Shown here piece after piece: positions 4,506-38,199 of a stretch of 41,775 nucleotides of DNA. Below the pieces are notes generated by a model that saw nothing but the letters and a program-made list of their open reading frames with translations, ran no database searches and was not told the DNA's origin. Source of the stretch: a virus; the UHGV virus genome UHGV-0209075; one strand, written 5' to 3'. Position 1 is the first letter of the stretch. Every line of letters starts with the position of its first letter. Made by a program: the position numbers and the translations under genes.

Positions 4506-4534
4506 AAAACTCTCCTGTTATTTCGAGCAGGAGG

Positions 4535-4596
4535 GTAACAATAGTTACATAGCAATGTCAACCATAGCAACATCACTTGGTAGTAACATTGGTTAC
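4535..4596. promoter_or_regulatory. OR-like operator region: two 14-bp dyads GTAAC-N4-GTTAC (4535-4548, 4583-4596) in the repressor/cro intergenic region
   Basis: GTAACAATAGTTAC and GTAACATTGGTTAC, centre-to-centre 48 bp; the second abuts the repressor ATG at 4597. Confidence 0.5.
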
Positions 4597-5271
4597 ATGA
4601 AAAACACTATCAGCGAACGTATTCGGAATCGTCGAAAAGACGTTGGATTAACCCAACAGCAGGTTGCGAAAGCAATCGGCATATCTCGTGTATCCGTAAC
4701 AAAATGGGAAAATGGCTCTTCAAAACCTGACGGTGAGAATTTGCATCTACTGTCAAAATTGCTTTCCAAATCTCCTGAATGGATTCTTTATGGAAAGGAC
4801 GGTCACGATAAAACCGATGATCTGCGTCTGAATCAGTATCTTTACATTAGTGACAACATCGCCCGGTTGCCCGTTTTAACGTGGGAACAGGCTGGTTATT
4901 GGGATATGAGTTGTCCAGTAACCGAGATTCCTGGCATTAAGAATTGGGTTGATGTCATGACAAAAACCGCTGAAAACTCTTTTTTATTGCATGTTGAGGG
5001 AGATGCGATGACAAACTCTAACGGCCTCCCAACCATCCCCGATGGATCTACCGTGCTGATCACACCATGCTCAAGTAACATTAGAGAACTGGTGGGAAAA
5101 ATAATCTTAATCCAATTGGAAGGAACGCCAAACGTAACACTAAAAAAAGTTGCGATTGACGGACCAAACATCTATCTGTTGTCACTGAATCCGCTTTACA
5201 AACCCATCGAACTGAATGGTGGTTACACCATTAAAGGTAAAGTTTCACAAATACATCAATACTTAGACTGA
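4597..5271 (+). CDS. cI: CI-type repressor (HTH_XRE N-domain + LexA/S24-like C-domain) with Ala at the nucleophile position (GDAM instead of GDSM)
   Basis: HTH LTQQQVAKAIGISRVSVTKWENG; C-domain motifs HVEGDAMTNSNG and VTLKKV align by eye with lambda CI EVEGNSM / FTFKKL; start taken at ATG 4597 (ORF-track ORF begins at TTG 4498). Confidence 0.8.
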   Translation: MKNTISERIRNRRKDVGLTQQQVAKAIGISRVSVTKWENGSSKPDGENLHLLSKLLSKSPEWILYGKDGHDKTDDLRLNQYLYISDNIARLPVLTWEQAGYWDMSCPVTEIPGIKNWVDVMTKTAENSFLLHVEGDAMTNSNGLPTIPDGSTVLITPCSSNIRELVGKIILIQLEGTPNVTLKKVAIDGPNIYLLSLNPLYKPIELNGGYTIKGKVSQIHQYLD

Positions 5272-7218: not shown

Positions 7219-9693
7219 ATGAGTAAAATCTTTATTTGCGCTGCTATTCCTGACGAACAGGCCATAAAAGAAGATAGCGCTGTTGCGGTGGCCACTGCCA
7301 TTGAAGCCGGTGATGAACGTCGCGCCCGCGCAAAATTTCACTGGCAATTCCTGGAACATTATCCGGCTGCTCAGGACTGCGCTTATAAATTTCTTGTTTG
7401 CGAGGATAAACCCGGTATACCCCGCCCTGCCCTCGATTCCTGGGATGCTGAATATATGCAGGAAAACCGCTGGGATGAGGAATCCGCTTCCTTTATTCCG
7501 GTCGAACCAGAATCCGATCCGATGAACGTCAATTTTGACAAGCTGTCCCTTGAAGTACAGAACGCGGTCCTGGTTAAGTTCGGTACATGTGAAAACATCA
7601 CCGTTGATATGGCGATTGACGCGCAGGAATTACTGCAGGAAGACGTTGCTACCTTTGACGGGCATATCGTTGAAGCACTGATGAAAACGCCTGAAATTAA
7701 CGCTATGTATCCGGAACGCAAACTGTTCGCTATCGGATGGGTTAAACACAAATGTAATCCGGGTGCCAAATGGCCAGAAATTCAGGCTGAATTACGTAAC
7801 TGGAAAAAACGGCAGGACGCAGAGCGCAAAGAGACTGGAAAATACACGTCTGTTGTTGATCTCGCCCGCGCCAGAGTCAATCAACAGCACACTGAAAACT
7901 CAGCAGGAAAAATCAACCCAGTCACTGCCGCCATTTGTCGCGAATACAAGCAGACATGGAAAACGCTGGATGAAGAACTGGCCTACGCTCTCTGGCCTGG
8001 CGATATTGATACCGGAAACATTGACGGCAGCATCCATCGCTGGGCAAAAAATGAAGTTATCGACAAAGATCGCGAAGACTGGAAGCGCATTTCCGCATCA
8101 ATGCGCAAACAACCCGATGCCGTTCGCTACGACCGTCAGACTATTTTTGGCCTTGTCCGTGAGCGTCCGATCGACATTCACAAAGATCCCGTAGCACTGA
8201 ACAAATACATCACTGAATACCTGACTACCAAGGGCGTGTTTGAAGATGACGAAGGAACAAATCAGGGCACAGCTGGTACTCTCCCGTCACCAGTACCAGA
8301 AACTGATGCAGTGGAAACGGCAATGCCGGACAACGAAAAAACCGAATGCGAAGTGGAAGACGAACCATCTGTAGAGCGTGAGGGACCGTTCTACTTCCTT
8401 TTCACCGATAAGGACGGCGAAAAATACGGTCGCGCAAACAAACTTTCTGGTCTGGAAAAAGCACTGGCCCTGGGAGCTACGGAAATCACAAAAGAGGAAT
8501 ACTTCGCACGTAAAAACGGCACGTACTCAGGTTCACAACAAAATACTGGTGCATCTGACACGATCGCACAACCAGAGCCGGTAAAAGTTACCGCTGACGA
8601 AGTAAACAAAATTATGCAGGCAGCCAATATCAGCCAGCCTGACGCCAATAAGTTGCTTGCTGTATCACGTGGTGAATTTGTTGCAGGGATTAGCGCCCCG
8701 AATGATCCGAAATGGGTGAAGGGGATTGAAACCCGCGATTCAGTGAATCAGAACCAGCAAGAAACGGAACAGAACGGCCAGAAAGCGGAACAAAACAGCC
8801 CAAATGCGTTACAAAACGAGCCAGAAACGAAACATCCTGAACCAGTGGCGCAACAGGAAGTGGAAAAAGTCTGCACCGCCTGCGGTCAGACCGGCGGCGG
8901 CAACTACCCTGATTGTGGCGCGGTGATGGGCGACGCAACATACCAGGAAACATTCGATGAAGAGTATCAGGTTGAAGTTCAGGAAGATGATCCGGAGGAA
9001 ATGGAAGGCGCTGAACATCCACACAAGGAGAACACTGGCGGCAATCAGCATCACGATAGCGATAATGAAACTGGCGAGACGGCAGATCACTCAATTAAGG
9101 TGAACGGTCATCAAGAAATCACATCCACCAGCAGGACGTGTGACCATCTAATGATCGACCTTGAAACCATGGGAAAAAATCCTGATGCCCCGATCATCTC
9201 AATAGGTGCAATATTTTTCGATCCGCAAACCGGAGATATGGGACCGGAATTTAGTAAGACTATCGATCTGGAAACTGCTGGCGGAGTCATTGATCGGGAC
9301 ACCATTAAATGGTGGCTTAAGCAATCACGCGAAGCGCAATCTGCCATTATGACCGATGAAATCCCGTTAGATGATGCACTGTTACAATTGCGGGAATTTA
9401 TCGACGAAAACTCCGGTGAATTTTTTGTTCAGGTCTGGGGAAATGGAGCCAACTTCGACAACACGATTTTGCGCCGTTCATACGAACGGCAGGGGATCCC
9501 CTGCCCGTGGCGTTACTACAACGATCGCGATGTACGCACAATCGTTGAGCTGGGGAAGGCCATAGACTTCGATGCCAGAACGGCTATTCCATTCGAAGGT
9601 GAGCGCCATAATGCACTTGATGACGCCCGTTACCAGGCAAAATACGTTTCAGCTATCTGGCAAAAACTGATCCCGAGTCAGGCTGATTTTTAA
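7219..9693 (+). CDS. large early-left protein with C-terminal DEDDh (DnaQ-like) 3'-5' exonuclease domain
   Basis: Exo motifs MIDLETMG, WGNGANFDNTIL and HNALDDARYQAKY in roughly residues 645-810; Glu/Gln/Asn-rich acidic linker; N-terminal ~340 aa unassigned. Confidence 0.7.
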   Translation: MSKIFICAAIPDEQAIKEDSAVAVATAIEAGDERRARAKFHWQFLEHYPAAQDCAYKFLVCEDKPGIPRPALDSWDAEYMQENRWDEESASFIPVEPESDPMNVNFDKLSLEVQNAVLVKFGTCENITVDMAIDAQELLQEDVATFDGHIVEALMKTPEINAMYPERKLFAIGWVKHKCNPGAKWPEIQAELRNWKKRQDAERKETGKYTSVVDLARARVNQQHTENSAGKINPVTAAICREYKQTWKTLDEELAYALWPGDIDTGNIDGSIHRWAKNEVIDKDREDWKRISASMRKQPDAVRYDRQTIFGLVRERPIDIHKDPVALNKYITEYLTTKGVFEDDEGTNQGTAGTLPSPVPETDAVETAMPDNEKTECEVEDEPSVEREGPFYFLFTDKDGEKYGRANKLSGLEKALALGATEITKEEYFARKNGTYSGSQQNTGASDTIAQPEPVKVTADEVNKIMQAANISQPDANKLLAVSRGEFVAGISAPNDPKWVKGIETRDSVNQNQQETEQNGQKAEQNSPNALQNEPETKHPEPVAQQEVEKVCTACGQTGGGNYPDCGAVMGDATYQETFDEEYQVEVQEDDPEEMEGAEHPHKENTGGNQHHDSDNETGETADHSIKVNGHQEITSTSRTCDHLMIDLETMGKNPDAPIISIGAIFFDPQTGDMGPEFSKTIDLETAGGVIDRDTIKWWLKQSREAQSAIMTDEIPLDDALLQLREFIDENSGEFFVQVWGNGANFDNTILRRSYERQGIPCPWRYYNDRDVRTIVELGKAIDFDARTAIPFEGERHNALDDARYQAKYVSAIWQKLIPSQADF

Positions 9694-11740: not shown

Positions 11741-12019
11741 TTAAAACCACTCCCTGAGCGGGCGCTCTGGTGTAACCACCCACTCACGGAACACGGAATC
11801 CTCAAATCCATCGTCAAGAAGACGGATATTAACAAAGTACCCTTCGTTTCGCGTGTATTCTGGTTCTCCGTCATCAGAAACATCTGTCTCCCTGAACGTA
11901 AAACCAATCTCATCAACCAGAACGGCATTCTGCAGCTCTTCGTCCTCTTCCCAGTTAAGTTTCCTGAGAAATGCCCTGAAATCTGCTTTATCACTGAAAC
12001 GCAACGTGAAATCTCTCAC
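11741..12019 (-). CDS. small acidic protein (92 aa); function unknown
   Basis: GTG 12019 overlaps the stf stop (GTGA) and is preceded by GGGGAGG (7-nt spacer). Confidence 0.45.
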   Translation of the reverse strand: MRDFTLRFSDKADFRAFLRKLNWEEDEELQNAVLVDEIGFTFRETDVSDDGEPEYTRNEGYFVNIRLLDDGFEDSVFREWVVTPERPLREWF

Positions 12020-14079
12020 TCCACAACCTCCCCAAGCTGCGCATCTGTTAGCTCTTTATGCCAGAGACGAAAATTCCTCACATGCCCAAATAAATGGCGT
12101 AATCCTGCTGTAGTTTGTCCACCAATGCGAATGGTTGCTGTACTCCGGATATATTCCCATTTGGTTTTAGTTTCGCTGCTTAACTTACCGTTACTGACTA
12201 CACATGTGGACCGTTCGGACTTTACCCGCATACCAATAAGCATTTTTTCCAGCCCGGCATTTTCATTTATTCGTCGGTCTGAACCACCTATATCGCAATA
12301 CGGAAAACCGTCGTACCCACCTGATGAACCAAACCCCATTACGATCCCCGCTCCGGTTTGATGACCGCCGGTATCAAAAACACGCGGCGCTACATTTGGC
12401 GTTTTATACCAGTTCTTATGTACCTCACAAAGAACCGTAAAAGGAAGATTATAAAGGTTATTCTTGATTGGGACTGTCACCATATCGCTTGCCCGCGTTG
12501 CCGGTGCCGTCCCCGTAACAATAAAAGATGATGCGCCTGTACCAGCCTCAATCTGTGGAGTGGTTACATCGAGATAATCCCCTGATGTAACCATCTGCCC
12601 TGTATCCGGAGAATACTGGACAAAACCACCAACCGTATTTTCTGTTGTATCTGCTTTTAATGTAGCCTCAAAAAATATCCAGCCAGTTGCATCATCCTTA
12701 ACAGACCTTGCTGTAACACGGCTTGTCTGACCTGTCTTGCTAATTATGCGGGTGGTAAGGTTCAGGTTTGCTGCTCCTATTGATGTCCTTACCTCCCCAT
12801 CATAATGTTCAAATAAAATACGAACGGCGATATTATCAACTTCACTTTTTACCCGACAGGATATAGTTACATGCTTTTCGTCCCCTGAAGTATCAACCCC
12901 TCCGGTACTCGAATACAGTCCGATAATGGTATGCGCTTTACTTGTACCAACAATCGAATCCTGTACGACAAACCGACCATAATTAAACCCGAAACTATCT
13001 GTGCCTGTTTCTGTAACGTCCAGTGAAGTTGACTTATTCCACTTCGAAGGGTCTGTACTGTTCTGGAAGAAGTTCGTTCTTTGTCCCTCAATAAGCAGGC
13101 CATCACACTCAAATCGCGGCTCATTAATTTCCGCCGTTTTCAGTTCGCCAGATTTGTTGATATATGTTGCCGTTGATGCGCGACTGAAATTAACCTGTTT
13201 ATCACTGGCAACCTGAACCACATTATCACCAATCTTCACTTTTTTATAACCCGGAGAATAGCCCGTAATCATATCCAGCGAATCATTAAAGGGTATCCAC
13301 ACATCCGGCAGCGGCTGTAAAACATATCTGTACGGCTCTGCTGTCTGGTTTGCGTATTCTCTGGCAGCATCTTCACTTGCTTTTGCTGCCGTCTGGCTTG
13401 CTGCCGATGCTTTCGCCGAGTTCGCCGCCGCTGTTTCGCTCACCTTTGCGTTGGCTTCACTGTCTTTGGCATTCGTCTCACTGGTTTTCGCTGCCGTCTG
13501 GCTGGATTTTGCGTTTTTTTCGCTGGCCTTTGTGGCTGTCTCGCTATTTTTCGCGCTGGTTTCTGATTTTTTGGCTGCTGTCGCGGAGTTTGCCGATGCA
13601 GTCTGCGAGGCCGCTGCCGCCTGTGCGCTGTTAGCTGCATTCGTTTCTGAGGTTTTCGCCGCATTCTTCGATGAGGCTGCTGCCGTTTCGGATTTCTTTG
13701 CCGCCGCTGCACTCTGTGATGACGCTCCGGCATGACGTGCCACTTCATTCACCATCAGCTCAAAACGGCGCAGTGCCTCCGGACGAACATCATCCTCCGT
13801 CATGGCGCCGAGAAAATCATTCAGCGTACCTGGTCTGGAACCTTCATAGACGGTAATGGTCCCGGCATGTGAAGGCGGAAAATCTTCAACCAGCAGGGTG
13901 ACGCTGTACTGGCCATACTCAACATCCATGCTGTAACGCCCGGCTTCATCCGGATTTTCAGAGGCCACCGTGTTCACCACCACCGTGCTGCTGGTCCGTC
14001 TGGCCTTCAGCACAATGGTGCAGTTCTGTACTGGTTTTCCTGTGCCATCTTTAAGCACGCCAGAAATTTTTACTGTCAT
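12016..14079 (-). CDS. stf: side tail fibre protein
   Basis: N-terminal ~130 aa very close by eye to lambda Stf (VKISGVLKDGTGKPVQNCTI...), Ser/Ala/Lys/Glu-rich repeat shaft, divergent C-terminal domain. Confidence 0.85.
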   Translation of the reverse strand: MTVKISGVLKDGTGKPVQNCTIVLKARRTSSTVVVNTVASENPDEAGRYSMDVEYGQYSVTLLVEDFPPSHAGTITVYEGSRPGTLNDFLGAMTEDDVRPEALRRFELMVNEVARHAGASSQSAAAAKKSETAAASSKNAAKTSETNAANSAQAAAASQTASANSATAAKKSETSAKNSETATKASEKNAKSSQTAAKTSETNAKDSEANAKVSETAAANSAKASAASQTAAKASEDAAREYANQTAEPYRYVLQPLPDVWIPFNDSLDMITGYSPGYKKVKIGDNVVQVASDKQVNFSRASTATYINKSGELKTAEINEPRFECDGLLIEGQRTNFFQNSTDPSKWNKSTSLDVTETGTDSFGFNYGRFVVQDSIVGTSKAHTIIGLYSSTGGVDTSGDEKHVTISCRVKSEVDNIAVRILFEHYDGEVRTSIGAANLNLTTRIISKTGQTSRVTARSVKDDATGWIFFEATLKADTTENTVGGFVQYSPDTGQMVTSGDYLDVTTPQIEAGTGASSFIVTGTAPATRASDMVTVPIKNNLYNLPFTVLCEVHKNWYKTPNVAPRVFDTGGHQTGAGIVMGFGSSGGYDGFPYCDIGGSDRRINENAGLEKMLIGMRVKSERSTCVVSNGKLSSETKTKWEYIRSTATIRIGGQTTAGLRHLFGHVRNFRLWHKELTDAQLGEVVE

Positions 14080-14230: not shown

Positions 14231-14830
14231 TCAGAAACGGTATCCGATACCAACAATAAATGCATCCGTTCGCCAGTCGCCACTACCGGAACCTTCATAA
14301 GCAATATCAATGGTCACGGATTCGGTCGGGTTAAACTGCACGCCAGCTCCCCACGCCAGAGACGTGTTGCTGTGGCGATCGTCATCACTTCCGGTCAGCA
14401 CATCGTGCGTTTTCCCCTTGTTGTCAGTTACGCGGAGATAATCCCCGGAGAACGTCGACACACGGCTGTAAGCCACACCTGCCATCGCATAAGCACTGAA
14501 CCATTCATTCACGCGTACAGATGGCCCCGCCATCACGCTGAACCAGCGGTTACGCACGGAATCTTCATGCCAGCGGGTATCGCTGTAGTGCGTTTTTTGC
14601 TCATCTTTGGCATTGGCATAACTGAATGACGTCACCAGCCCCAGCGTGTCCGTAAACTCATAACGGTATTTCACGTTAATCCCGTTCAGATCATCGCTGC
14701 CAGGCATATCAGTATGGGTCTGAAGATACCCGGCGCTTAGTGTGGACTGATGCTCTGCTGCGCTCGCTGGCGTACCAGCGGCAACCAGCCAGACTACTGC
14801 GGACAGAATAACAGCACATAATTTACGCAT
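14231..14830 (-). CDS. lom: Lom/Ail/OmpX-family outer-membrane beta-barrel protein
   Basis: Signal peptide plus alternating beta-strand pattern ending GIGYRF; position between J and stf as in lambda. Confidence 0.85.
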   Translation of the reverse strand: MRKLCAVILSAVVWLVAAGTPASAAEHQSTLSAGYLQTHTDMPGSDDLNGINVKYRYEFTDTLGLVTSFSYANAKDEQKTHYSDTRWHEDSVRNRWFSVMAGPSVRVNEWFSAYAMAGVAYSRVSTFSGDYLRVTDNKGKTHDVLTGSDDDRHSNTSLAWGAGVQFNPTESVTIDIAYEGSGSGDWRTDAFIVGIGYRF

Positions 14831-14897: not shown

Positions 14898-17800
14898 TCA
14901 GCTAATCGTGATGCCTGCAGTGGCTTTCTTCATCACAACAACCAGCAAATCGCTGATACTTGCTGTGGGATACCAGCCATTTACCCACCATGCTGATACA
15001 GAAAACTCCAGCGTCATGTCGCCGCGACCAGCAGGCATATCAATAACACCACTGTAAACCAGCGTATTATCCATCGCGGTACGGTTATAAATTTCAGCAC
15101 CGTTTTTCTTCACTATCAGGCGGCATGACGAATAAGTATCGCTGTTCTCCCGCTCATGTCTGGCACCGCTGAAAGCCACCGCCGGAATAACAATCTGCCG
15201 GTTAAACGGCTGATCGTCATAAACCCTGACGGTAATGGTTCCTGATGGCCAACGCTTCGGTGCACGGGAGTCACGAGGGAAAGCCTTACCCACTGTTTTA
15301 ACGAGATCGCCTTCAATCTGGTTTGCAGACAGTTTCCCTCTGATGACACAGTTCTCGTTAATGGTGACATTATTGAGCGTGCCGGTATTCGCCGTGATGG
15401 CTCCACTGATATCCGCATTGCGGGCTGTCAGCCTGCCATCCGGCGTCAGGGAAAACGTCGGAGGATTGCCGGATGACGTGATGCTCACCGCAAACAGTCG
15501 CTTCAGGAACACGTCGTTCATGAACAGCTGATTCCCCTGCGCCACAAACAGCGGCGTGGTGTTGCCGTTCTCCGGGGTAATCATCGCAATGCGATCGGCC
15601 TGCAGCAGAATGTTACTCAGGGTCTGACCATCAACATCCTCAATCCCCGCACCAATCCCGGCCACATAGGGAATACCGTTTTTTGTTTTCTGCACCTTCA
15701 GCATATACATGGCATTCAGCTCATTGCGCGTGTCTGACTGAACCCGCTGGATTTGCTGTATGGTCACGGCCTGGTCACCCAGTTTTTTATCCGTGGTCGA
15801 GGTAATTTCACTCCCTTTTTTATCCACGTACTGGCGGACCTGTGCTATCTGTCGGGCATTTTCTGACTGCCCCTGGCTGACAGTCTGTGAGATTTCACTG
15901 CTCACCCGGTCCACTTTCTGGCTCACCTGCGCGATGGCCAGTGTCTGGTCCTCATTCTTTTTCGCAACCAGCTGCGTGAGGCTGTTTTCCGCCTCCCCGA
16001 TTTTCCGGGTCACTTCTGCGATATCCGTGTCCATCCGCTGACGGATGTCTTCTTCCAGTTGCGTGACCTCCGTACGCAGCGCTGAAGCATCAATGCGCTC
16101 TTTCAGTGCCTGGCCCAGAAGCGTCTCATCTATCAGCCCCCGGAAAATTTCCAGATACCCTTCACCATCATTGCTGGGCTGCCCGCTGGCTTCCACAAAA
16201 GCAGATTTTCCCACCAGGTTGACGCTTCGCACGTAAAACCAGAAATCCGTCCCCGGCTTAATCCGGCTCCCCTGGACAGTCCACTGACTGCCGGTCCCCA
16301 GATAACGGGCAGATTTTTCCACCTGTGCTGTGTTCGTGATGCGTTTTTCTGAGAACCAGAATTCAAACTGTACCGTCGGGTCATACACCGCAAGACGCGG
16401 GACCGCCGTTATCTGAAAATACCCCGGCGTCAGCTCAATGGTGGCGGGTTTTGCAGGTGCGTTAATCCGGAACGATACCGACGCCGGATCGCCCTGCTGT
16501 CCCCGGGCATTTACCGCCCGGACCGTCAGCGTGTAACGCCCCAGCGCCAGCTGCCTGAAGCGGTAAGTGGTTTCCGCCGTCCGGGCCGTGCTGACCAGCC
16601 GCTCACTGCCGTCATCCGCTGTTACGGTCAGACGGAGCAGGAAGCTCACGCCCTTCACCACCTTCGGCGTGTCCCAGCGCGCCAGCACCTGATATTCCCC
16701 GCTGTCTGCGGTGACTTCGGCGGTCAGGTGCTGCACCGCTGGCGGCGTGACACCATTCACCGTGCCGCTCTGGTCGCCGTCAAAGTGCGCTCCGTTATCC
16801 ACGATGGCCTCTTTTTCCGGTACATGCTGCACGGCGGTGATGGCATACGCACCGTCATCGTTCTCCCGGATACTCACACAGCGGAACAGGCGCTGGCGCA
16901 GCGTCGGCAGCTTCAGCCCCCACACGCTGTATTCGGCAACGCCGTCAGGAATACGGCTCACTTTCACCTTCACGCCGTCGGTGACGGACTGGACCTCCAC
17001 GCTGACCGGATTCCCACTTCCGTCAACCAGGCTTATCAGCGTGGTGCCGGAGGATGACAGCATGATTTCACGGTCGAGCGTCAGCGTCCGGGTCTGGCTG
17101 TTCACCGCCAGCACGCGCCCGCCGGTGCTGATACCGGCATAGTCATCATCACAGATTTCAATGACATCGCCCGGAACATGGCGAAGCCCTTCTGCGCCGA
17201 CGCTGAAGTCCACGGTCTGCGTTTCCAGCAGTTCTGTTTTAATCAGCCACAGCCCGGCGCGGTGTGCCTGCCCCCGGCTGGTACAGCCAAAGGCATCCAT
17301 CTTCGTGACGTTACGACCGTAACGGGCAATGGCCTGCGTGTCCTCCACAAGCTCTGTTGCCGTCTCCCAGCCGTTATCCGGGTCAATCCAGTTCACCTCA
17401 ACGGCATTATGGCGGTCCTTCAGGGCGCTGAAGCTGTAGCGGAACGGCGCGCCATCATCCGGCATCACCACATTACTGCGGTTATAGGTCCACACCTTAT
17501 CCGACGGTCGGTCCTGCACGAACGTCAGCGTCTGCCCGTTCCATACCGGCATACAGCGCATCGCCGAGCAAAAATCACTGAGCACATCCCACGCCTTGCG
17601 CTGTGTGGTCAGGTACGCATTACAGGTGATGCGCGGCTCCGTGCCGCCAAAGCCGTCCGGCACTGACTGGTCGCAGTACTGGCCGATGACATACAGCGCC
17701 CATTTATCCACATCCGCTGCACCAAGACGTTTCCCCATGCCGTAGCGCGGATGGGTCAGCATATCCCACAGACACCAGGCCATGTTGTTGCTGTATGCCG

Positions 17801-18596
17801 GTTTAAACGTTCCGTCCCAGATACCGCTGTATTGCCGCGTCTGCGGGTTATAATTCGACGGCACCTGCAGAATACGCCCGCGCAGATGATAATTACGGCT
17901 CACCTGCTGGCTGCCGAACTGTTCCGAGTCCACCTGTACGCCGACCAGTGCCGTGTTCGGGTAGCACTGTTTCACATCGATGATTTCGGTGTATGACGAC
18001 CAGAGCGTTTTGTTCTGCAGCTGGTCTGTGGTGCTGTCCGGCGTCATCCTGCGCATCCGGATATTAAACGGGCGCGGCGGCAGGTTATCCACCACCACCG
18101 AGGCCAGATACTGCGAGGTGGTTTTGCCTTTAATGGTGATGTCTTTTTCCGTCACCCAGCCACCATTACGCTGTATCTGAACCAGCAGGCGGACTTCCGA
18201 CGGATTCCGGTCACCCTTTGAGGTGGTTTCCACCAGTGCCTGCACACCGAAGGTAAAGCGCAGACGGTCGATGTTTGCCGACGTGATGGTGCGGGTGATC
18301 GGCGTGTCATATTTCACTTCTGTACCGAGCACCGTCTCGGAGCCGGAGGATTCAAAACCTTCCGGCGGTGTCTGCTCCTGCTCACCTGCCCGGAACACCA
18401 CCGTGACGCCGGAGATGTTGGTATTCCCCTCACTGTCCAGCACCGGCGTACTGTTCAGCAGCACGCTTTTTAATCCATCCACCGGACCTTCAATCGGCCC
18501 TTCGCTGATGGCATCAATCACACTCAGCAGTTGCGTGGACTTCAGGTTGTCCTTCGCTTCGCGCGGGGTATGCCCCTTACTGCTTCCTTTGCCCAT
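14898..18596 (-). CDS. J: tail tip host-specificity protein J
   Basis: 1232 aa; N-terminus [43 protein letters not shown] matches lambda J as I recall it. Confidence 0.9.
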
Positions 18597-30445: not shown

Positions 30446-32203
30446 TCACAGAATTAACAGGTCCTCATCAGGATCAAGCGTGGACAGAAAGTCATTCACG
30501 CCCCCTCCATTTACCAGAAAGCGGCTCATGGCTGTAAAAAGCGCAACAGGGCCGTCGATTTTGGCTTCCGGCGTGGATTTATTCGGGAAGATGTTGTCGT
30601 TTTTGTCCGGTTTTACAGTAACGTTAGACATCATCCAGTTCATGACCGGATGATTGCTGTGATGGAAACGCCCGGCATAAACCAGTGATTCCGTTTCCTT
30701 CATGGCCTCTGACAGATTGCGGACCGTCTGCGGAACCTCCACCAGCGGTATCCCTTCTTCAGCCAGTGCCAGGCTGAACTGCATTGCGCTCCACGGGTCA
30801 AATCCCAGTTCCCTGAGGTTTTCACCGCCAATCCATTCCAGTAAGTCACTTTTTATCTGAGCATGATCGATAACATCACCATCCGTCAGGATGAGCTTAT
30901 CCATCTCCGCCCACTTCCGGTAAAGTTCTGCCTGCTGCCGCGAGCATCGTTCCAGCCGTCCTTCCGGAAGCCAGAATTTAAAATCAGCATGAACATGTCC
31001 GTTATCGGTTCGCCAGAGTTTTGCCGCCGCACAGATATCAATCTTATGAGCAAGGTCGACGCCGACCCACATGGGATATGTTTTCAGCTCATGTTGTGGA
31101 GCAATGTATTCGCACTTCTCCCACTTAATCATATCCATCCAGGCAGATTCGGCAGTGACCCACACATTCATGTGTTTGGTAAAAAAATTCACCCGCGCAG
31201 AGACCTGCTCCTTCGCTTTTTTCGCCAGACGACGCAGATCATCCCAGCGTTTACAGATGCCCAGGCCAGGATTCGCTTTCTGCCAGACCGTTTCATCAAA
31301 CGGATCATCTCCCTCATCAAGCGTGTAAATGATCGCAAAGTAAGAGTCGTCTTTTACAGCGCCCTCCACGTCGCTGTTATAGCCTCGCAATACCTTGATG
31401 GCGTAATCACGCTGCTCGTAACAAATCCCTTCCTTGTTAAAGCCAGCCGTGGTGATACCAAATAACAGGGACTGCAGACGGGCACCGGTTGCCGTTTCCA
31501 GAACGTCCCACACGTCGCGGGTTTTATGTGCATGCAGCTCATCAATAATGGCGCAGTGGATGTTCAGACCGTCCAGGTTGTTTGCATCCGAGGAAAGCGG
31601 TTCAAATTTTGATGCGCTCTGCTCCTGGTAAATCGCCAGCTTGTTGAAATCAAACAACCGCCCGAGTGTCGACCGGGCTTTTCTGACCATATTTTTGGCG
31701 TCTTCAAACACGATTCTGGCCTGGTCACGCGTGGTTGCGGCTGAATACACCTCAGCTCCGCCTTCACTATCTGCCCCCGTCATATACAGGCCGATACCCG
31801 ATGACAGTGTTGATTTTGCGTTTTTACGGGCGACTTCGTTGTACGCCGTCCGGAACCGGCGCACCATCACCGGACGTCCGCTGCCATCGCTGCGCATGAC
31901 AACTTCCCCGGTTTCTTCATTGACCAGCGGAATGACAAAACCAAAAATATTAATGAGGATAAATACATGCCAGTCCATCAACTCAATGGGCTGGCCTGCC
32001 AGTGCCCCTTTTACATGAGGCACAAATTTGTAGAAATTCAGGATGTGCTGCGCACGGGGTTCACTGAAATAAATCCCCCGCTTTTCGCCGTACTTCAGAT
32101 CATCAAGAAAACGCTGGCAGGCCAGGCGGACAAATTCGCCAGCAACAATTTCTCCTGCAACAACACGTTCGGCGTAGCGGATCCCGTCAGCCACTTTTGC
32201 CAT
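30446..32203 (-). CDS. terminase large subunit
   Basis: 585 aa; start overlaps TerS stop (TGATG). Confidence 0.9.
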   Translation of the reverse strand: MAKVADGIRYAERVVAGEIVAGEFVRLACQRFLDDLKYGEKRGIYFSEPRAQHILNFYKFVPHVKGALAGQPIELMDWHVFILINIFGFVIPLVNEETGEVVMRSDGSGRPVMVRRFRTAYNEVARKNAKSTLSSGIGLYMTGADSEGGAEVYSAATTRDQARIVFEDAKNMVRKARSTLGRLFDFNKLAIYQEQSASKFEPLSSDANNLDGLNIHCAIIDELHAHKTRDVWDVLETATGARLQSLLFGITTAGFNKEGICYEQRDYAIKVLRGYNSDVEGAVKDDSYFAIIYTLDEGDDPFDETVWQKANPGLGICKRWDDLRRLAKKAKEQVSARVNFFTKHMNVWVTAESAWMDMIKWEKCEYIAPQHELKTYPMWVGVDLAHKIDICAAAKLWRTDNGHVHADFKFWLPEGRLERCSRQQAELYRKWAEMDKLILTDGDVIDHAQIKSDLLEWIGGENLRELGFDPWSAMQFSLALAEEGIPLVEVPQTVRNLSEAMKETESLVYAGRFHHSNHPVMNWMMSNVTVKPDKNDNIFPNKSTPEAKIDGPVALFTAMSRFLVNGGGVNDFLSTLDPDEDLLIL

Positions 32204-32685
32204 CAGTCTCTCGCTTTTAAAAGCTCTGCCAGCGGATCAACATTATCCGGTCCGGCGGTATTTACTTTTGCCCGGCTTGCCGGTGACATACCAAATTCTG
32301 CAAGCATCGCCCGGATCCGCTTCCAGGCATCCGCTTTCATCGCAGCAGCCGGGTGTGCCTTAATCAGCACATCACCGTTCTGCGTTTCCGAGCGGTAGGT
32401 GTACCCCTCAACATCGAGTGTTTCGCAGTGATGCCGGTATTCGGTATAGGCTTCCACCAGTAGCTCAAGCGCACGCGCATCAAGCTGAGAAATGATCCCT
32501 TCCGCATTCAGCTCTTCCGCCATTCGCCTGAACCAGTACTTCCCCTGCGCCCCTAAATGTTGCGGAATTTTAGGGAGACCTTTTTCATCCTTTTTAGCGG
32601 TTTTTTTGAGGTCTTTAACTGGCCGCTTTGAGGGGTTGCCTCGTATCAAATGCAGGCGTGGCGGGATTTTCGGGGGTCCAGACAT
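32203..32685 (-). CDS. terminase small subunit (P27-like)
   Basis: 160-aa basic ORF immediately upstream of TerL. Confidence 0.8.
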   Translation of the reverse strand: MSGPPKIPPRLHLIRGNPSKRPVKDLKKTAKKDEKGLPKIPQHLGAQGKYWFRRMAEELNAEGIISQLDARALELLVEAYTEYRHHCETLDVEGYTYRSETQNGDVLIKAHPAAAMKADAWKRIRAMLAEFGMSPASRAKVNTAGPDNVDPLAELLKARD

Positions 32686-32832
32686 AATCGGTTTTACCTA
32701 TCAATCATTTAATCACATTCCAAAAAAAAGTTTTCGAACCTGCGGCGATGCGAGGAAAGGTCAGGCGGCGGTACTGAGCAGCCAGGGTTGCAGAGATTTG
32801 ACCCGCCCCTCCCCTACAGATGGGAACTGTTA

Positions 32833-33183
32833 TCAATTGATGCGTTCGCGCGCTGTTTTTGCTTTATGACAGGGCCAGCACAGACTCTGCAGGTTACTGT
32901 CTGCATCTGTGCCACCATGAGCTTTCGGAATGATGTGGTCCACAGTTCTGGCTTCAACGGCTCTCCCATTGCGCAGGCAGTTCTGACACAGATGATTATC
33001 ACGCTTCAGTATGCGCGCACGTATGGCATCCCATTTCGAGCCATAGCCACGCTGGTGGCGGCTCAGTCCGCGTTGATGCTGTACCCATCCTTCGCCACGA
33101 TGTTTATCGCAGTAACCAGAACTGTCTGTGGTTGTACCTGCACATCCACGCTTACGGCAGGCGCGTGGGATTAGTGCTGGCAT
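32833..33183 (-). CDS. HNH endonuclease (terminase-associated)
   Basis: DHIIPKAHGGTDADSNLQSLCWPCHKAKT HNH motif plus N-terminal Cys cluster; immediately upstream of TerS as in HK97-like cos phages. Confidence 0.85.
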   Translation of the reverse strand: MPALIPRACRKRGCAGTTTDSSGYCDKHRGEGWVQHQRGLSRHQRGYGSKWDAIRARILKRDNHLCQNCLRNGRAVEARTVDHIIPKAHGGTDADSNLQSLCWPCHKAKTARERIN

Positions 33184-33321
33184 GTTTCGCCCTTATATAA
33201 ATCAAAGGTGACCTGCATTGAGTATCTCCATGGAATAGATTTGCTGCTGATATGAGACAGATCAATAGACTTCATGAGCCAACGGGTGTAGATATTACTT
33301 TTTACTTCAGAGGGTTAACTC

Positions 33322-33861
33322 ATGGATATTAAAGATAAAATCAATACCATTTTGTTATGTGACATTGCCATCCACCTAGGTATCGAAACTGATATTGATC
33401 CACAGCTTGTTAAATATGCTGTGTCATCTGGTAATGATTGGGTTATCAAGGCCGAATATTCACATTTGGATGTTGACGAACCAAGTAAAGAAGATCGTGA
33501 TTTTGTTACTGCTGTCTTGAATATGTATCGCGGACTTTCCAATGCTTTCAGGAAACTTAGTGATGACGAGCAAAAAGAATTAGTCCGTGACCATCATCTA
33601 AAAATACATGATGGGGCAATTCAGCTCCCAGGTTTCGACGGTAATAATGAATGCGATTACTTCAGTATCATTGAGGCATATCAGAAAATTGATCGCTTCC
33701 CCGAACAGAAACAGCCCATTGCCAATACTCATTCACGTACAGAACATCTCTATAACGCAATGCTTGATGAGTTTAAGAAAATTGACGCTGTAAATCGAAG
33801 CTGGGATTTATCGAAGGAAGAACTGGCATCCATTCTTTCCACAGCTCCACGCAGTTTCTAA
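33322..33861 (+). CDS. YfbU-like (UPF0304-like) protein, AT-rich cargo gene antisense to late operon
   Basis: ATG 33322 preceded by AGAGGG (7-nt spacer); by-eye resemblance to E. coli YfbU as I recall it; about 38% GC. Confidence 0.5.
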   Translation: MDIKDKINTILLCDIAIHLGIETDIDPQLVKYAVSSGNDWVIKAEYSHLDVDEPSKEDRDFVTAVLNMYRGLSNAFRKLSDDEQKELVRDHHLKIHDGAIQLPGFDGNNECDYFSIIEAYQKIDRFPEQKQPIANTHSRTEHLYNAMLDEFKKIDAVNRSWDLSKEELASILSTAPRSF

Positions 33862-33866
33862 GTGCT

Positions 33867-34133
33867 TTAGGCGGGTTTCCAACCCGCCTTATTATGCTCG
33901 TATATAGAGAAGGAAGCACCCAAATTAACCAGCGCGGATTTCTTTTCCTCAATACGGCTGTTAAGTTCAGCAACTGCATGCGGGCGTATGGCCTCAAGAA
34001 AAGCACTATATTGATAGGCAGACTGGATTGTCACACCAAGCCCTGCACCACTTTCCAGTATACCTTTCTGTCGCTGTAGCTCTTTCATCTCGTTATAGAT
34101 GTAATGTGCGTTACTTAGGTTTTCTACGTTCAC
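33867..34133 (-). CDS. hypothetical protein (88 aa) downstream of Rz
   Basis: GTG start with weak SD; its 3' end overlaps the hairpin of the convergent gene; coding status uncertain. Confidence 0.3.
   Translation of the reverse strand: MNVENLSNAHYIYNEMKELQRQKGILESGAGLGVTIQSAYQYSAFLEAIRPHAVAELNSRIEEKKSALVNLGASFSIYEHNKAGWKPA
33870..33888 (+). terminator. perfect 8-bp-stem hairpin 9 nt after the YfbU-like stop
   Basis: GGCGGGTT-tcc-AACCCGCC followed by TTATTATG. Confidence 0.4.
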
Positions 34134-34288
34134 GCCCTAAGTTCTTCCTGCAGTTAGCCTGCACTGATTTGTTATGCGCCAATATGTCCCGCTTCGTCTG
34201 TTGCATTATCATAAGTAATAGCGTAGGTTGACACCTTGGCTCTCTTTCGCCACCGGCGAATCTTTAGCGGATTATCCTTGGCCGGTTT

Positions 34289-34756
34289 TTATCTGAGACA
34301 TTGCTCACGAATGTATAGCTGTGCCCCTTCCAGTTGCTTCTGCATCGTCATCAACCGTTCTCTGAGGGTGAAATAATCCCGTTCAGCGGTGTCTGCCAGT
34401 CTGGGGCTGGTTGCATTATCCACGCTGGTGGGTCCGGTGGCTTCACGCACGGCTGCGGAGCAACTGGCATTGACCCGCAGGCGCTTACGACCAGCGGCAA
34501 CATCAGCGCGCAGAGTTTCATTTTCAGCTTTCGCATTGGCTAATTCTCTCGAGTACTTTGCATCGAGCGCAGCAACATCACGCTGACGCTGTTGCATGTC
34601 AGCGATGGTGGCAGTCGCCTGCTTCAGCTCACTGACTTTTTTATCACGCTGTTCTTTGTAGGCGATGGCGTTATCACGGTAATGATTGACCGCCCACGAC
34701 AGGCAGACGATGGTGCAGATAACCAGAGTATAAATAATCGCTGCGACTCTGCTCAC
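34289..34756 (-). CDS. Rz: i-spanin Rz
   Basis: GTG 34756 overlapping endolysin stop (GTGA), GGGGGA SD; N-terminal TM helix, periplasmic coiled-coil; contains embedded Rz1. Confidence 0.8.
34351..34536 (-). CDS. Rz1: o-spanin Rz1 (lipoprotein) embedded in Rz in a different frame
   Basis: [20 protein letters not shown] lipobox followed by Pro-rich mature peptide. Confidence 0.75.
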
Positions 34757-35286
34757 TGATCTATCCCCCAACAGGCTAATGCGCTTTCCTGGTCACGACG
34801 AATAACCTGTCCATAGCAGTTATTTGAACGTATGCGGCAATCGCGCCCACCATCTTTTATCCACCAGCGAATCGCCTCGCATGCGCCCTTACGATCACCG
34901 GCATTCAGCCGCTTATAAAACGTCGACGGGAAACACTTACCGGGGCCAATGTTATAGGGACAGAATGACGCTATACCCGCTTTCTGTGGTTCGGTCAGTG
35001 GTACTTTAATATTGCGCTCTACCCATGCCAGCGCCTTATCACGTTCAATAGCGTTAACCTGGTCGCATTTTTCCTTCGACAGCTTCATTCCCGGTATGAC
35101 GGGCTTACCATCCACCATTGTGGCACCCCGACAGATGGTCCAGATGCCGGCCCCATCGCGGTATGCCGTTGTGTGGTTACCTTCTTTTTCATCCAGAAAC
35201 TGGTCGAGAATATCAGGCGCGGGCGCACCGACGGCAATCAGTGCCAGAACGGCAGCCGACAGGCCGTATCTGATTTTTGCGTTCAT
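34753..35286 (-). CDS. R: SAR endolysin (phage-21-type lysozyme)
   Basis: N-terminal signal-anchor-release helix ([15 protein letters not shown]) and E-x8-D-x5-T catalytic triad ([16 protein letters not shown]). Confidence 0.85.
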
Positions 35287-35349
35287 GGATATTTATCAGG
35301 ATTTATCGGTTTCTGCCCACGGACAGGTTTATCTGTTCCGGTCAGTGAC

Positions 35350-35700
35350 TTAAGGTTGTGATTCCGGAGGAGTCTTCAGAGAACCAGTAATTCTTCCTGG
35401 TAGCTTTCCTTTGTAGGTTATCCACACATTCTGCGCCTCTAAAATTACGGGGCGCTTTTCCGGCGACTGCTCATCCCCTTCACATAACCCGGCAGCAACA
35501 TCCAGGAAGACCTGTCTGATGCTCCTTCTGGCTGCTGCCTCATAAAACCCCAGCGCGGCACCTTCAACACGGTCCAGCGAGATGTCCAGGTCAAAAATTT
35601 CACCGTCAAAGCGTTTTTTGTCCCGTAACGCTAAAGTTACCGTAACTTTATTCTCAAAATTGCGGATCCCTTTCACAATCAGTTCATAGTTTTGAGTCAT
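35350..35700 (-). CDS. hypothetical protein (116 aa) between holin and endolysin
   Basis: ATG 35700 preceded by GGGGAGAG, 4 nt after holin stop; soluble-looking. Confidence 0.5.
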   Translation of the reverse strand: MTQNYELIVKGIRNFENKVTVTLALRDKKRFDGEIFDLDISLDRVEGAALGFYEAAARRSIRQVFLDVAAGLCEGDEQSPEKRPVILEAQNVWITYKGKLPGRITGSLKTPPESQP

Positions 35701-35704
35701 TGAA

Positions 35705-35920
35705 TTACTCTCCCCGTGCAGCCTTACGACGGTCCTCTCTGATTTTGAAATACAGGTTAGTCAGATATGTCAGGAAGCCCAGAACCAGACTCCCCAGTAC
35801 ACCAATCGCAGCCCACTGTGACGGACTGACCTGATCAAGCCACTGTAAAAACCAGTAGCCAGCACTGCCTGCGGAGGTGCCGTAGGCAATGCCCGTTGAA
35901 ATTTTATCCATGGATTTCAT
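35705..35920 (-). CDS. S: pinholin/antiholin S21-type with dual start (MKSM)
   Basis: From ATG 35920 (GGAGGTGA SD): [29 protein letters not shown]; two TM segments; second Met at codon 4. Confidence 0.85.
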
Positions 35921-36055
35921 AGCCTCACCTCCGCAGCGAACGGATGGCGTAGTTATAAGGGGAGCGAAAAAGAAAGAATGCGCGATTGCGCAATATGGTA
36001 ACGTCAGGGTATTATCCACTGGCTGAATAGATCACTTCACGTTTTTTGTTCCTTG

Positions 36056-36085
36056 CCGCCCGTATCCATATGCGGGCTTTTTTTT
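36056..36085 (+). terminator. hairpin + T8 on plus strand upstream of holin
   Basis: GCCCGTAT...ATGCGGGC followed by TTTTTTTT. Confidence 0.4.
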
Positions 36086-36090
36086 GCATG

Positions 36091-36121
36091 TAAAAAGGCC
36101 CCAACACATGTGCGTGGGGCC
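36091..36121 (-). terminator. hairpin + U-tract on minus strand between cargo ORF and holin
   Basis: GGCCCC-13 nt-GGGGCC followed on minus strand by UUUUUAC. Confidence 0.45.
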
Positions 36122-36517
36122 TGAGAGTATACATGGTTTCAGTCAACTGCATGGTGCCGGGTGCCTCCCGGTGAATTCAGTACCAGCACCTGAATCCGCG
36201 ATTATCCCATATACCTACTCGCTGATTGCCCCTCCGCACAGGGGGATTCACCATGCCAGTTTCTTTTAACAAACTCCCCGCAAACCAGACAACAGTCAAC
36301 CGCCTGAATTGTGAAGTATTTAAAAATTTCTCCCGCTAACTGATACCCGGCTAACAGTCTGGCGTTTTCTTTTTCAGCAACGGGAAAGCAACAACCACCA
36401 CACCCGCCACCAGCACACCGTCAGCCAGCACTGACATTATCCGGCTGCTGCAATGCCACTCACAAAAACAGTAAGCAATCACTTTTTACCGTAACAAGTG
36501 ATAATCCAGATATGTAT

Positions 36518-36844
36518 CTACCCCAGATGAGTAATCCGAAGTTCATCCATACCACAGGTCCTGGCTATTCTGTTGTACTCCTGAACAAGAGCAAATAATT
36601 CTGAATTAGCAACCATGAACTCATCGCAAACCCTCTGAATAGCATCACTATTCAGAATAATAACGTCTCTTCCCGAAAGACGATCAGGAGTACAGAACAA
36701 AACTGTCAAACGGCTGAAGGCCTTTGCTCGTGCTGCATTGACTATATCAATACGCTGCCTAAGGATGAAACACCCCGACGCCTCATCAATATTCACTCTA
36801 CCCACACCATATGAATGATAAATATTTAATGCTGAAAAAACCAT
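36518..36844 (-). CDS. hypothetical protein (108 aa), AT-rich cargo ORF at the stx-equivalent position
   Basis: Only ORF >60 aa in the 36126-36984 gap; about 40% GC; no clear SD at either candidate start, so coding status uncertain. Confidence 0.35.
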   Translation of the reverse strand: MVFSALNIYHSYGVGRVNIDEASGCFILRQRIDIVNAARAKAFSRLTVLFCTPDRLSGRDVIILNSDAIQRVCDEFMVANSELFALVQEYNRIARTCGMDELRITHLG

Positions 36845-36984
36845 TGGACCGTATAACAAACACTCAATCAATACTTAACAGAACTTTTATTTTTGACAAA
36901 CATATAATATTTTCAACAATATCCTGAGCCAGGTATATTTCAGTATAAGGCTCTGCCGGAAGGAATCTGGAAGAATGAATATAG

Positions 36985-37058
36985 CGCGCTGTACTGGATT
37001 CGAACCAGTGACCGATTGCTTAGAAGGCAATTGCTCTGTCCGGCTGAGCTAACAACGC
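36985..37058 (-). tRNA. tRNA-Arg (anticodon UCU)
   Basis: Hand-folded cloverleaf: acceptor GCGTTGT/ACAGCGC, D-stem GCTC/GAGC, anticodon stem ATTGC/GCAAT with loop CTTCTAA, T-arm ACTGG-TTCGAAT-CCAGT. Confidence 0.8.
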
Positions 37059-37158
37059 TGAATACCGATAATGGACCGCCATCGGGGACCCGCCCCCGCA
37101 CCAACAACCCTGTTATCGCGTCGTCTGCTCTTCCTGATAAGCTAATGGCGGTTTGTGA

Positions 37159-37234
37159 TGGTGGCCCTTGCTGGATTTGAACCAGCGACCTGGCGATTAT
37201 GAGTCGCTCGCTCTCACCACTGAGCTAAAGGGCC
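37159..37234 (-). tRNA. tRNA with CAU anticodon (Ile2/lysidine-type or Met), CCA encoded
   Basis: Hand-folded cloverleaf: acceptor GGCCCTT/AAGGGCC, anticodon loop CTCATAA, T-arm GCTGG-TTCAAAT-CCAGC; resembles E. coli ileX by eye. Confidence 0.8.
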
Positions 37235-37270
37235 GGGAGCAGAATAATAACGGTCCGTAATTAATTCCGC

Positions 37271-37296
37271 AATAAAAAACCCGCTCGGCGGCGGGT
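37271..37296 (-). terminator. tR'-like terminator about 50 nt downstream of the candidate late promoter
   Basis: ACCCGC-tcggcg-GCGGGT followed on minus strand by UUUUUAUU. Confidence 0.5.
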
Positions 37297-37336
37297 TGTA
37301 GAAACTCTTCTAACGTCAGGCATAAAAGGCCCATCG

Positions 37337-37372
37337 TTATGACGAATTTACCACAGATTCCGGAAAAATCAA
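37337..37372 (-). promoter_or_regulatory. candidate late promoter PR' (Q-dependent) just downstream of Q
   Basis: Minus-strand TTGATT (37372-37367), 16-bp spacer, TAAATT (37350-37345). Confidence 0.4.
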
Positions 37373-37377
37373 CCTTG

Positions 37378-38199
37378 TTACCTAGTTACCTTTTTTAACT
37401 GCCGCTCAGCCCATGCTTCTTCAATATCAAACCGGGTCACCAGCGCATCATAGAATTTCTTAACTGTTTTTTCCCATGACGCGCGTGTTATCTGGTTTGT
37501 CACCTCGCATATAGCATTAAATGCCTCCGTTGATGGCAGCCTTTCACAGCCACGACCACCACAACGCTGGCAATCTCTGATAACAGGCATACCACGTTTT
37601 ACCGACTCTTCACGATGAATGGCGACACCACGCCCACGGCAATCCTTACAGGCGGTGGAAACCTCACCCTTTCCGCCACACTCCGGACAGGCAACTTTTA
37701 CCACCTCCCTGACTTTTTTCCATTCTTCCCAGTAAGACGGATACACGCCTTTTGTGCACTTTGCCCACACTGGTGGCTTACCATCCGGATACTGGATCTT
37801 GTTTGTAAAAACCTCGCTTTCAATAAATTTTTTTCCGTGACAGCAGGGGCACTGTTTTTTGCTCGCCGCGCTACGGGCATAATCTTCAAACGCATACGAA
37901 GCCATAATGCGCATCACTACCGGTTTTATTTCTGCCGGAAGTTTTCTCAACGCCGCCACACGATCGCACCGACTGAGTGCATAATCTGCCAGTAATTCTG
38001 TTGCCCGCGCCCTGTCATTCATACTGATGCCCATTTTCCCCAGGAACGCAGAAAACCCCATCTCAGCCCGATTCTGTGTCATGCCCTGCGCGGCCATCAC
38101 ATCAGTGATACTCAGCGCATCTTTTGACGTTGAGGCCGATACATCGGTCAGGCCAGGGGATTTTGGGGAGTAGTATTTCGGTAAATCTTCCAGTTTCAT
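37378..38199 (-). CDS. late antiterminator Q (zinc-binding, resembles Quu-type prophage antiterminators)
   Basis: N-terminal YSPKSPGLTDVSA...TDVMAAQGM and multiple CxxC pairs; start overlaps rusA stop; followed by PR'/tR' candidates. Confidence 0.75.
   Translation of the reverse strand: MKLEDLPKYYSPKSPGLTDVSASTSKDALSITDVMAAQGMTQNRAEMGFSAFLGKMGISMNDRARATELLADYALSRCDRVAALRKLPAEIKPVVMRIMASYAFEDYARSAASKKQCPCCHGKKFIESEVFTNKIQYPDGKPPVWAKCTKGVYPSYWEEWKKVREVVKVACPECGGKGEVSTACKDCRGRGVAIHREESVKRGMPVIRDCQRCGGRGCERLPSTEAFNAICEVTNQITRASWEKTVKKFYDALVTRFDIEEAWAERQLKKVTR

Follow-up and report, generated by a model that had tools for sequence, protein, structure and literature searches.

A YfbU-family moron at the bor/iss hotspot of a temperate lambdoid phage genome, with a possible anti-phage role

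Introduction

What is the function of a gene that a temperate phage carries between its lysis and packaging genes, on the strand opposite to all of them? The question is raised by the virus genome UHGV-0209075, a stretch of 41,775 nt that was analysed at its full length (hereafter, the window), and by one open reading frame (ORF) of its plus strand, 33322-33861, which is referred to here as the yfbU-like gene. This gene is almost certainly a moron of the YfbU fold at the bor/iss hotspot, and it may encode an anti-phage factor. The naming of its product in RefSeq ("YfbU family protein", WP_000351660.1), the classical bor/iss hotspot and a published defence gene with a YfbU domain were already known. 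The linking of these facts for a clade of Escherichia coli prophages and the description of the cassette are new.

The product is a distant member of the YfbU family

33322-33861, plus strand: yfbU-like gene, ATG start, 179 amino acids (aa), PF03887, antisense to the late genes

The original prediction, which was made from the sequence alone, described an AT-rich ORF of 179 aa preceded by the Shine-Dalgarno sequence AGAGGG, judged its product to resemble E. coli YfbU, and proposed a hidden Markov model search against UPF0304/YfbU as a check. The ORF was present as described, with a guanine-plus-cytosine (GC) content of 39.1%, compared to 54% for the neighbouring HNH endonuclease gene, 53% for the Rz gene and 50.5% for the whole window. 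The Shine-Dalgarno sequence was located at 33309-33314, 7 nt before the ATG. When the proposed search was run, the Pfam YfbU profile (PF03887) was matched with 46.3 bits (gathering cut-off 25; E = 6.5e-12), residues 46-172 of the protein being aligned on profile positions 46-164 of 166, and this was the sole Pfam domain above threshold. The profile of the clade (30 members) matched the YfbU structures 1WPB/4LR3 in the PDB (E = 2.7e-9, residues 54-173), which were not reached by a single-sequence phmmer search of the PDB with the YfbU-like protein. The ORF also matched phrog_6084 (E = 8e-83), a PHROG family with no assigned function.

The relationship to the host protein was remote. BLASTP against E. 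coli K-12 YfbU returned 21% identity with an E-value of 0.044, and the NCBIfam equivalog NF003936 gave 34.8 bits against its cut-off of 90. The predicted resemblance is thus one of profile homology, but not of close similarity or equivalence to E. coli YfbU. As judged from these alignments, the protein is a genuine YfbU family member and a distant paralogue of the host gene product rather than its orthologue, and the mostly helical, two-domain fold of 1WPB/4LR3 is predicted across its whole length. The description of YfbU as a family of unknown function is outdated, since Kamadhenu has been published as a single-gene anti-phage system (PMC11381338).

Within the clade, C13, A33, W40, G104-F105-D106, N109-E110, H137 and Y144 were invariant, and the motif of the YfbU-like protein reads G104-F105-D106-G-N-N109-E110, with H137 and Y144 further downstream. 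In 16 diverse family members, including E. coli YfbU, GFD and Y144 were again invariant and N108 and H137 were conserved in at least 90%. E. coli YfbU was an outlier, with GFDAATE in place of GFDGNNE and Q replacing H137. Among 149 family representatives, GFD was present in 135, the exact GFDGNNE in 77, and N-[STAG]-H, approximately 32 residues downstream, in 114. GFDGNNE, N-S-H and Y together are read as a putative functional site.

No enzyme fold was detectable in the predicted fold of the YfbU-like protein. A match of residues 38-147 to the Cfr10I/Bse634I restriction endonuclease profile (18.4 bits, E = 0.0015) was below the cut-off of 27 and was not supported by the predicted fold. An N-terminal ribbon-helix-helix domain (CopG-like, PF01402) was fused to the YfbU domain in 21 of the 149 representatives (~14%), an architecture which suggests that DNA binding or autoregulation can be linked to the YfbU domain. 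Such fusions are ~225-240 aa long (for example P0048, and L022 3737-4459). The protein of the window has no DNA-binding extension. In a fold search of BFVD, only one viral protein with the YfbU fold was found (template modelling score 0.70), and the phage proteins catalogued so far therefore contribute little.

The gene occupies the variable junction between Rz and HNH

33184-34288, no strand: variable cargo segment, from the HNH start codon to the Rz stop codon
32833-33183, minus strand: HNH endonuclease gene (PF01844, E 1.9e-16; phrog_144), left flank, start of the packaging module
34289-34771, minus strand: Rz i-spanin gene with embedded Rz1 (PF03245, E 1.9e-49; phrog_13), right flank, end of the lysis cassette

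All late genes surrounding the yfbU-like ORF were on the minus strand, including a YdfR-like ORF near the lysis cassette, in agreement with the predicted opposite orientation between Rz and the HNH/terminase genes. Backbone homology with sibling prophages, in which HNH and Rz were near-identical, ended at 33183 on one side and at approximately 34289-34308 on the other. The segment 33184-34288, as it had been delimited in the original prediction, is exactly the part that varies among these siblings. The junction was empty in L004, with a gap of 42 bp. In L005, it carried iss, annotated as an increased-serum-survival lipoprotein, on the plus strand, and in L003 a GNAT acetyltransferase gene, also on the plus strand, plus a 66-aa ORF. 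In the window, the same junction held the yfbU-like gene and an 88-aa ORF (orf88).

Phage lambda carries bor at its lysis/packaging junction. Iss is a relative of Bor, and both are lipoproteins of the outer membrane. The predicted "bor position" was borne out by the sibling prophages with the same flanks, in which iss was found at the same junction and on the same strand. The yfbU-like gene thus shares with lambda bor and E. coli iss the Rz-cos junction and the antisense orientation. The products differ, as the YfbU-like protein has no sequence relationship to these lipoproteins. No signal sequence, lipobox or hydrophobic span was seen in it (N-terminus MDIKDKINTILLCDIAIHLGIETD) on inspection by eye, with no predictor run, and because of this it is probably cytoplasmic. 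No Bor/Iss family match was obtained in Pfam or NCBIfam, so that, together with the apparent lack of a signal sequence or lipobox, the analogy to bor is one of position only.

The region upstream of the packaging module in lambdoid phages is a recognised hotspot of morons and immunity genes (PMC11364771). The phi80 morons Tai and Ati fall in the same location class, directly upstream of the packaging genes (PMC11364771). Their proteins are unrelated to the YfbU-like protein, and Tai acts on tail assembly and is paired with a counter-defence gene (PMC11364771), whereas no partner gene was found for the yfbU-like gene of the window.

Homologues are found at the same position on different backbones and on plasmids

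Homologues with 49-83% identity had the lysis cassette on one side and the small terminase or HNH gene on the other, and were always antisense to the late genes. Their carriers were prophage-like contigs of Enterobacter and Providencia, a contig with a Superficieibacter-named protein, and further assemblies. The backbones differed, with either the lambda-type GpA and a Nu1 or DUF1441-type small terminase, or P27/TerL terminases. A relative of 32% identity, from a contig whose small terminase is of the Nu1 type, was located shortly upstream of the holin, likewise in antisense, and one relative was in a non-phage context. By these sequence comparisons, the yfbU-like gene is mobile between backbones, with fidelity of position. 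Its predicted nature as a cargo gene was corroborated by its presence or absence among relatives, the dip in GC content, its own terminator and the shared position on unrelated backbones.

In the locus with the Superficieibacter-named YfbU protein (L014 6990-8488, 10538-11170), a Ser/Thr kinase gene and a PP2C phosphatase gene adjoined the yfbU homologue in the lysis/packaging interval, and a HicA/HicB pair was located upstream of the holin. This interval is a multi-cargo hotspot.

Family members were also found on plasmids by tblastn against PLSDB, in 17 records with the protein of the window as the query and in more than 300 with other members. An 8-kb mobilisable plasmid of Acinetobacter lwoffii, pAL_065-6 (L018 593-2620), carried a YfbU-family gene followed by one small ORF and then an Abi_2 gene (E = 1.9e-50). 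On more than 250 plasmids of Enterococcus, the gene directly after a YfbU-family gene was a co-directional one of ~170 aa without a Pfam family (pairs at L021 4001-5038 and L017 4001-5044); the two may form a variant of the system with two genes. A P2-like Yersinia phage harboured a family member in an accessory gene cluster after the tail-fibre genes. Its assignment to the P2 Z/fun hotspot was considered; the gene order in the record did not permit this, and it is not claimed.

The gene forms a cassette with a conserved upstream block and a terminator-like hairpin

33237-33321, plus strand: conserved upstream block, putative promoter and 5' untranslated region, with GATC, ATAGACT, GTGTnGATATTA and AGAGGG
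33869-33889, plus strand: terminator-like hairpin, stem of 8-9 bp, 3-nt loop, then UUAUUAU

The upstream block with its ribosome-binding site, the 179-aa gene and the terminator hairpin make up a moron cassette that is self-contained and spans ~650 bp (roughly 33237-33889). It was compared with the cassettes of L032 and L034, the three being the closest to one another. The 85 nt upstream of the ATG were 75-77% identical between the window and the other two, compared to 49-59% for the third codon positions of the ORF and 31-40% for the distal upstream spacer. Conservation of these 85 nt is therefore above the synonymous-site level of the ORF. A consensus sigma-70 promoter was not found on the plus strand upstream of the ORF, where the best candidate, TAGACT-19-GATATT, was poor. 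Given the lack of a good sigma-70 match and the conservation of the 85 nt, the promoter placed in this block is putative and is read from conservation.

The hairpin is GGCGGGTT-TCC-AACCCGCC at 33870-33888, which extends to 9 bp with the A33869/U33889 pair. A perfect stem of 8 bp was thus confirmed, but it begins 8 nt after the TAA and not 9, as had been predicted. Its free energy was -16.2 kcal/mol (z = -3.35 against shuffled sequences). The U-rich tail is present on the plus strand only, and there is no U-tract on the late (minus) strand. The hairpin was kept in L032 and L034, where two stem pairs were altered on both sides (TT/AA to AA/TT). A stem-loop within 70 nt of the stop codon was predicted in all seven homologues examined; it was a canonical GC stem with a T-run in three (L006, L027 and L024) and was weak in two (approximately -10 kcal/mol). 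These features suggest that the hairpin would end the yfbU-like transcript before its antisense entry into orf88 and the lysis genes, and that late transcription would pass through it. An Rfam scan of 32600-37400 gave no match inside 33184-34288.

The gene is under purifying selection and is widespread in E. coli

The ratio of nonsynonymous to synonymous substitution rates (dN/dS) was 0.075 for the window against L034 and 0.126 for L032 against L034, and was 0.12-0.15 for the other unsaturated pairs; synonymous sites were near or beyond saturation in the homologues used for these values. Such ratios are those expected of a functional gene under purifying selection. The gene was carried by 225 of 5426 complete E. 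coli genomes (chromosomal only), in every case at 95% identity or more, and it was of full length in all but one of the carriers (224/225). Among the carrier strains listed, many were human isolates, including one neonatal-meningitis strain, and others were isolates from poultry. That the ORF arose by chance or is decaying was ruled out by the family match to YfbU, the low dN/dS and the near-universal full length.

A proposed anti-phage role of the Kamadhenu type

With regard to function, the reading favoured here is that the gene encodes a single-protein anti-phage factor of the Kamadhenu type which is expressed in the lysogen. Its probability is estimated at about 0.5. Kamadhenu (pUCCL624_130) is a 180-aa, single-gene anti-phage system of a Lactococcus plasmid, has PF03887 as its only domain and confers an abortive-infection phenotype (PMC11381338). 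It provides resistance to Skunavirus and Ceduovirus (PMC11381338), and all phages that escaped it carried a change at residue G22 in a single-strand annealing protein (SSAP) resembling Sak (PMC12184496). The likeness to the YfbU-like protein consists in the length (180 compared to 179 aa), in PF03887 as the only domain and in a stand-alone gene on a mobile element. The two differ in that Kamadhenu belongs to a Gram-positive host and a plasmid, whereas the gene of the window lies in a temperate E. coli prophage. Apart from Kamadhenu, no relative from a mobile element has been characterised by experiment in the literature that was searched. The prevalence of the family on plasmids, the Abi_2 neighbour on the Acinetobacter plasmid and the location in an immunity hotspot were also counted for a defence role.

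Under this reading, the product would be made in the lysogen and would act by superinfection exclusion or abortive infection. It could sense a recombination or replication protein of the incoming phage, or the DNA product of such a protein, through the GFDGNNE / N-S-H / Y surface, and would then halt the infection. During lytic growth of the carrier itself, antisense read-through by late transcription might switch the yfbU-like gene off. No SSAP of the RecT, Red-beta, Erf or Sak type was evident in the carrier genome, despite the presence of a RecE-like exonuclease, and the leftward early operon (the pL equivalent) contained no ORF large enough for one. The missing SSAP fits, weakly, with self-tolerance of the carrier.

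Several points weigh against a defence function. Expression in the lysogen, the anti-phage role, its trigger and the self-silencing are all inferred, and the lack of a consensus promoter described above counts against this reading. No effector domain can be recognised in the YfbU-like protein. Functions may differ within PF03887, a broad family of 2112 clusters at 50% identity. The Kamadhenu phenotype is known from Lactococcus only, and the link between Kamadhenu and the gene of the window is at the level of the PF03887 family. No known defence genes flanked the yfbU-like gene in the window. A search of PADLOC-DB v2.0.0 (E up to 1) gave no match for the YfbU-like protein or the orf88 product; this version (2023) predates Kamadhenu (2024). 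To our knowledge, no defence role has been demonstrated for chromosomal E. coli YfbU, which is a conserved host gene product and the best-known member of the family.

No Lactococcus record was listed among the tblastn matches in PLSDB with the protein of the window, E. coli YfbU or an Enterococcus YfbU as the query. Profile searches of a set of 5.8 billion proteins, and the cluster names of the 180-aa candidates, likewise returned no Lactococcus name.

A wider form of the anti-phage reading may be considered, in which the YfbU fold would be a widespread sensor that stands alone, detects the recombination proteins of phages or their DNA intermediates, and works through a new effector mechanism. 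The prophage clade, Kamadhenu, the plasmid copies and the ribbon-helix-helix fusions would then belong to one pan-bacterial family of single-protein immunity (~2100 clusters), and chromosomal yfbU would have been domesticated. This is put forward tentatively, as an unlikely reading.

Other possible functions: benefit to the host or to the phage

A first alternative is lysogenic conversion that aids the host apart from phages, through stress tolerance or the death response to DNA damage. The same hotspot carries iss, for serum survival, and the GNAT gene, and many of the listed carriers were the human and poultry isolates mentioned above. A yfbU deletion in E. coli behaves like a mazEF deletion after DNA damage, and a report places yfbU downstream of MazF as a "death gene" (PMC2646832). 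Against this, the protein cannot act in the manner of the Iss lipoprotein or of Bor, because no signal sequence or lipobox was seen by eye, and it shares only 21% identity with host YfbU. The relatives are on small plasmids (one of them near Abi_2) and in a P2-like phage, not on virulence islands, and the sole characterised member from a mobile element in the searched literature is anti-phage (PMC11381338). A benefit to the host of this kind is considered unlikely.

A second alternative takes the comparison with chromosomal E. coli YfbU (UPF0304; 1WPB, 4LR3) as its starting point. The two proteins share the Pfam family, the two-domain helical fold, GFD and the equivalent of Y144. They differ in sequence, as described, and in genomic setting, the chromosomal gene being found in the conserved context hxpA-yfbU-yfbV and not on a mobile element. 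The phage-encoded paralogue might poison or mimic the oligomers of host YfbU, and so block MazEF/YfbU-dependent death at induction and allow the lytic cycle to be completed. Host YfbU fractionates with higher-order assemblies, with a reported interaction with ribosomal subunits (PMC3210124); 16 chains are present in 1WPB and 4LR3, and its size-exclusion fraction is in line with a higher-order state (PMC3210124). MazF-linked death requires host YfbU after DNA damage, the same signal that induces lambdoid prophages, and in the phage protein the fold is kept and the surface and motif residues are changed (GFDGNNE/H137 against GFDAATE/Q in the host). However, GFDGNNE/NSH is the majority form of the family (77/149) rather than a derivative peculiar to phages, with the host protein as the odd one out, and homologues were found in phages of Providencia and Enterobacter and on plasmids whose hosts may have no yfbU on the chromosome. 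The antisense placement speaks against expression during lytic growth, and the MazEF death model is itself contested. This alternative is regarded as improbable.

The neighbouring orf88 is a real but independent gene

33867-34133, minus strand: orf88, 88 aa (phrog_5415, E 2e-38; RefSeq WP_001100260.1)
34129-34203, minus strand: relic of the 3' end of an o-spanin gene of a different type (tblastn, 64% identity over 25 aa to L007, E 5.6e-10)

The 88-aa ORF had been called doubtful. It is a real gene, as it matched phrog_5415, is annotated in RefSeq and had homologues in 13 phage records, some of them large genomes (110-164 kb). In Citrobacter phage Chris1, the homologue was again located after the lysis genes on the late strand, and orf88 represents a type of small conserved late-strand gene that several temperate phages carry after their lysis genes. 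The hairpin of the yfbU-like cassette is encoded within the last six codons of orf88 (..AGWKPA*), and the two genes are tail-to-tail, with stop codons 5 nt apart. At the six related loci compared, whose yfbU homologues have 49-63% identity and which do not include L032-L034 (81-83%), no orf88 homologue was found beside them. On this basis, the unit that moves is the single yfbU-like gene, and orf88 is an independent neighbour outside its module.

The weakest alternative, a two-gene module with orf88 (toxin-antitoxin-like or regulator-effector, with a shared convergent terminator) or a role as regulator or sensor, has in its favour the tail-to-tail arrangement, the joint presence in ~224 E. coli genomes, the ribbon-helix-helix fusions in ~14% of representatives and the co-directional 170-aa gene on Enterococcus plasmids, but is very unlikely, as orf88 is absent beside the 49-63% homologues compared and occurs alone in other phages (the 110-164 kb genomes and the lysis genes of Chris1), and the protein of the window has no DNA-binding extension. 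On the same grounds, orf88 was rejected as a partner gene.

Between Rz and orf88, the stretch ..QQTKRDILAHNKSVQANCRKNLG matched the C-terminus of an apparent o-spanin of L007, this "o-spanin" being our reading of an unannotated 62-aa ORF that overlaps a 92-aa ORF after the lysin gene. The relic is a fossil of an earlier mosaic exchange. A block of 140 bp (34149-34288) was common to the window and the GNAT-type cassette at the DNA level. Taken together, the relic and the shared block suggest repeated recombination at this boundary.

The carrier phage

The window appears to be the complete genome of a temperate phage, in circularly permuted form, and not a slice of a chromosome. The phage is lambdoid, with a head and packaging module of the HK97 type, and the following features were recognised in addition to those given above.

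34753-35286, minus strand: lysozyme, late gene
32203-32685, minus strand: small terminase, P27-type, late gene
30446-32203, minus strand: large terminase, late gene
35705-36019, minus strand: 104-aa ORF read as holin; in siblings, RefSeq annotates a shorter holin (class II) there
4498-5271, plus strand: CI-like repressor
3868-4293, minus strand: CII-like protein
1689-3162, minus strand: O/P-like replication genes
7219-9693, plus strand: RecE-like exonuclease, 824 aa
9955-10980, plus strand: integrase
36086-36285 and 36985-37234, minus strand: STnc100 and tRNA region (Rfam)

Relative to late transcription, an Rfam match to the small RNA STnc100 (139 bits) was located upstream of the holin, with two tRNA genes further upstream. 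A 199-aa ORF (14231-14830, minus strand) was located between a 1232-aa ORF (14898-18596), taken as J by its position, and a 687-aa ORF (12016-14079), taken as a tail fibre gene by its position. In a sibling prophage, of strain 4/4, an outer-membrane protein of the Ail/Lom family is annotated at the place of 14231-14830. If equivalent to the Ail/Lom gene, this ORF would be a second classical moron.

Significance

If the yfbU-like gene is not a defence gene, it remains a routine instance of morons being exchanged at an established hotspot. If it is an anti-phage gene, ~4% of complete E. coli genomes would carry an uncatalogued single-gene defence that is missed by PADLOC-DB v2, and Kamadhenu would be extended from Lactococcus plasmids to the prophages of Gram-negative bacteria. 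The genetics of E. coli could then be applied to the YfbU fold, to the GFDGNNE / NSH / Y site and to a possible SSAP trigger. Should the reading of the fold as a pan-bacterial sensor be true, the E. coli cassette would offer a tractable entry to the function of a structure that has been orphaned since 2004.

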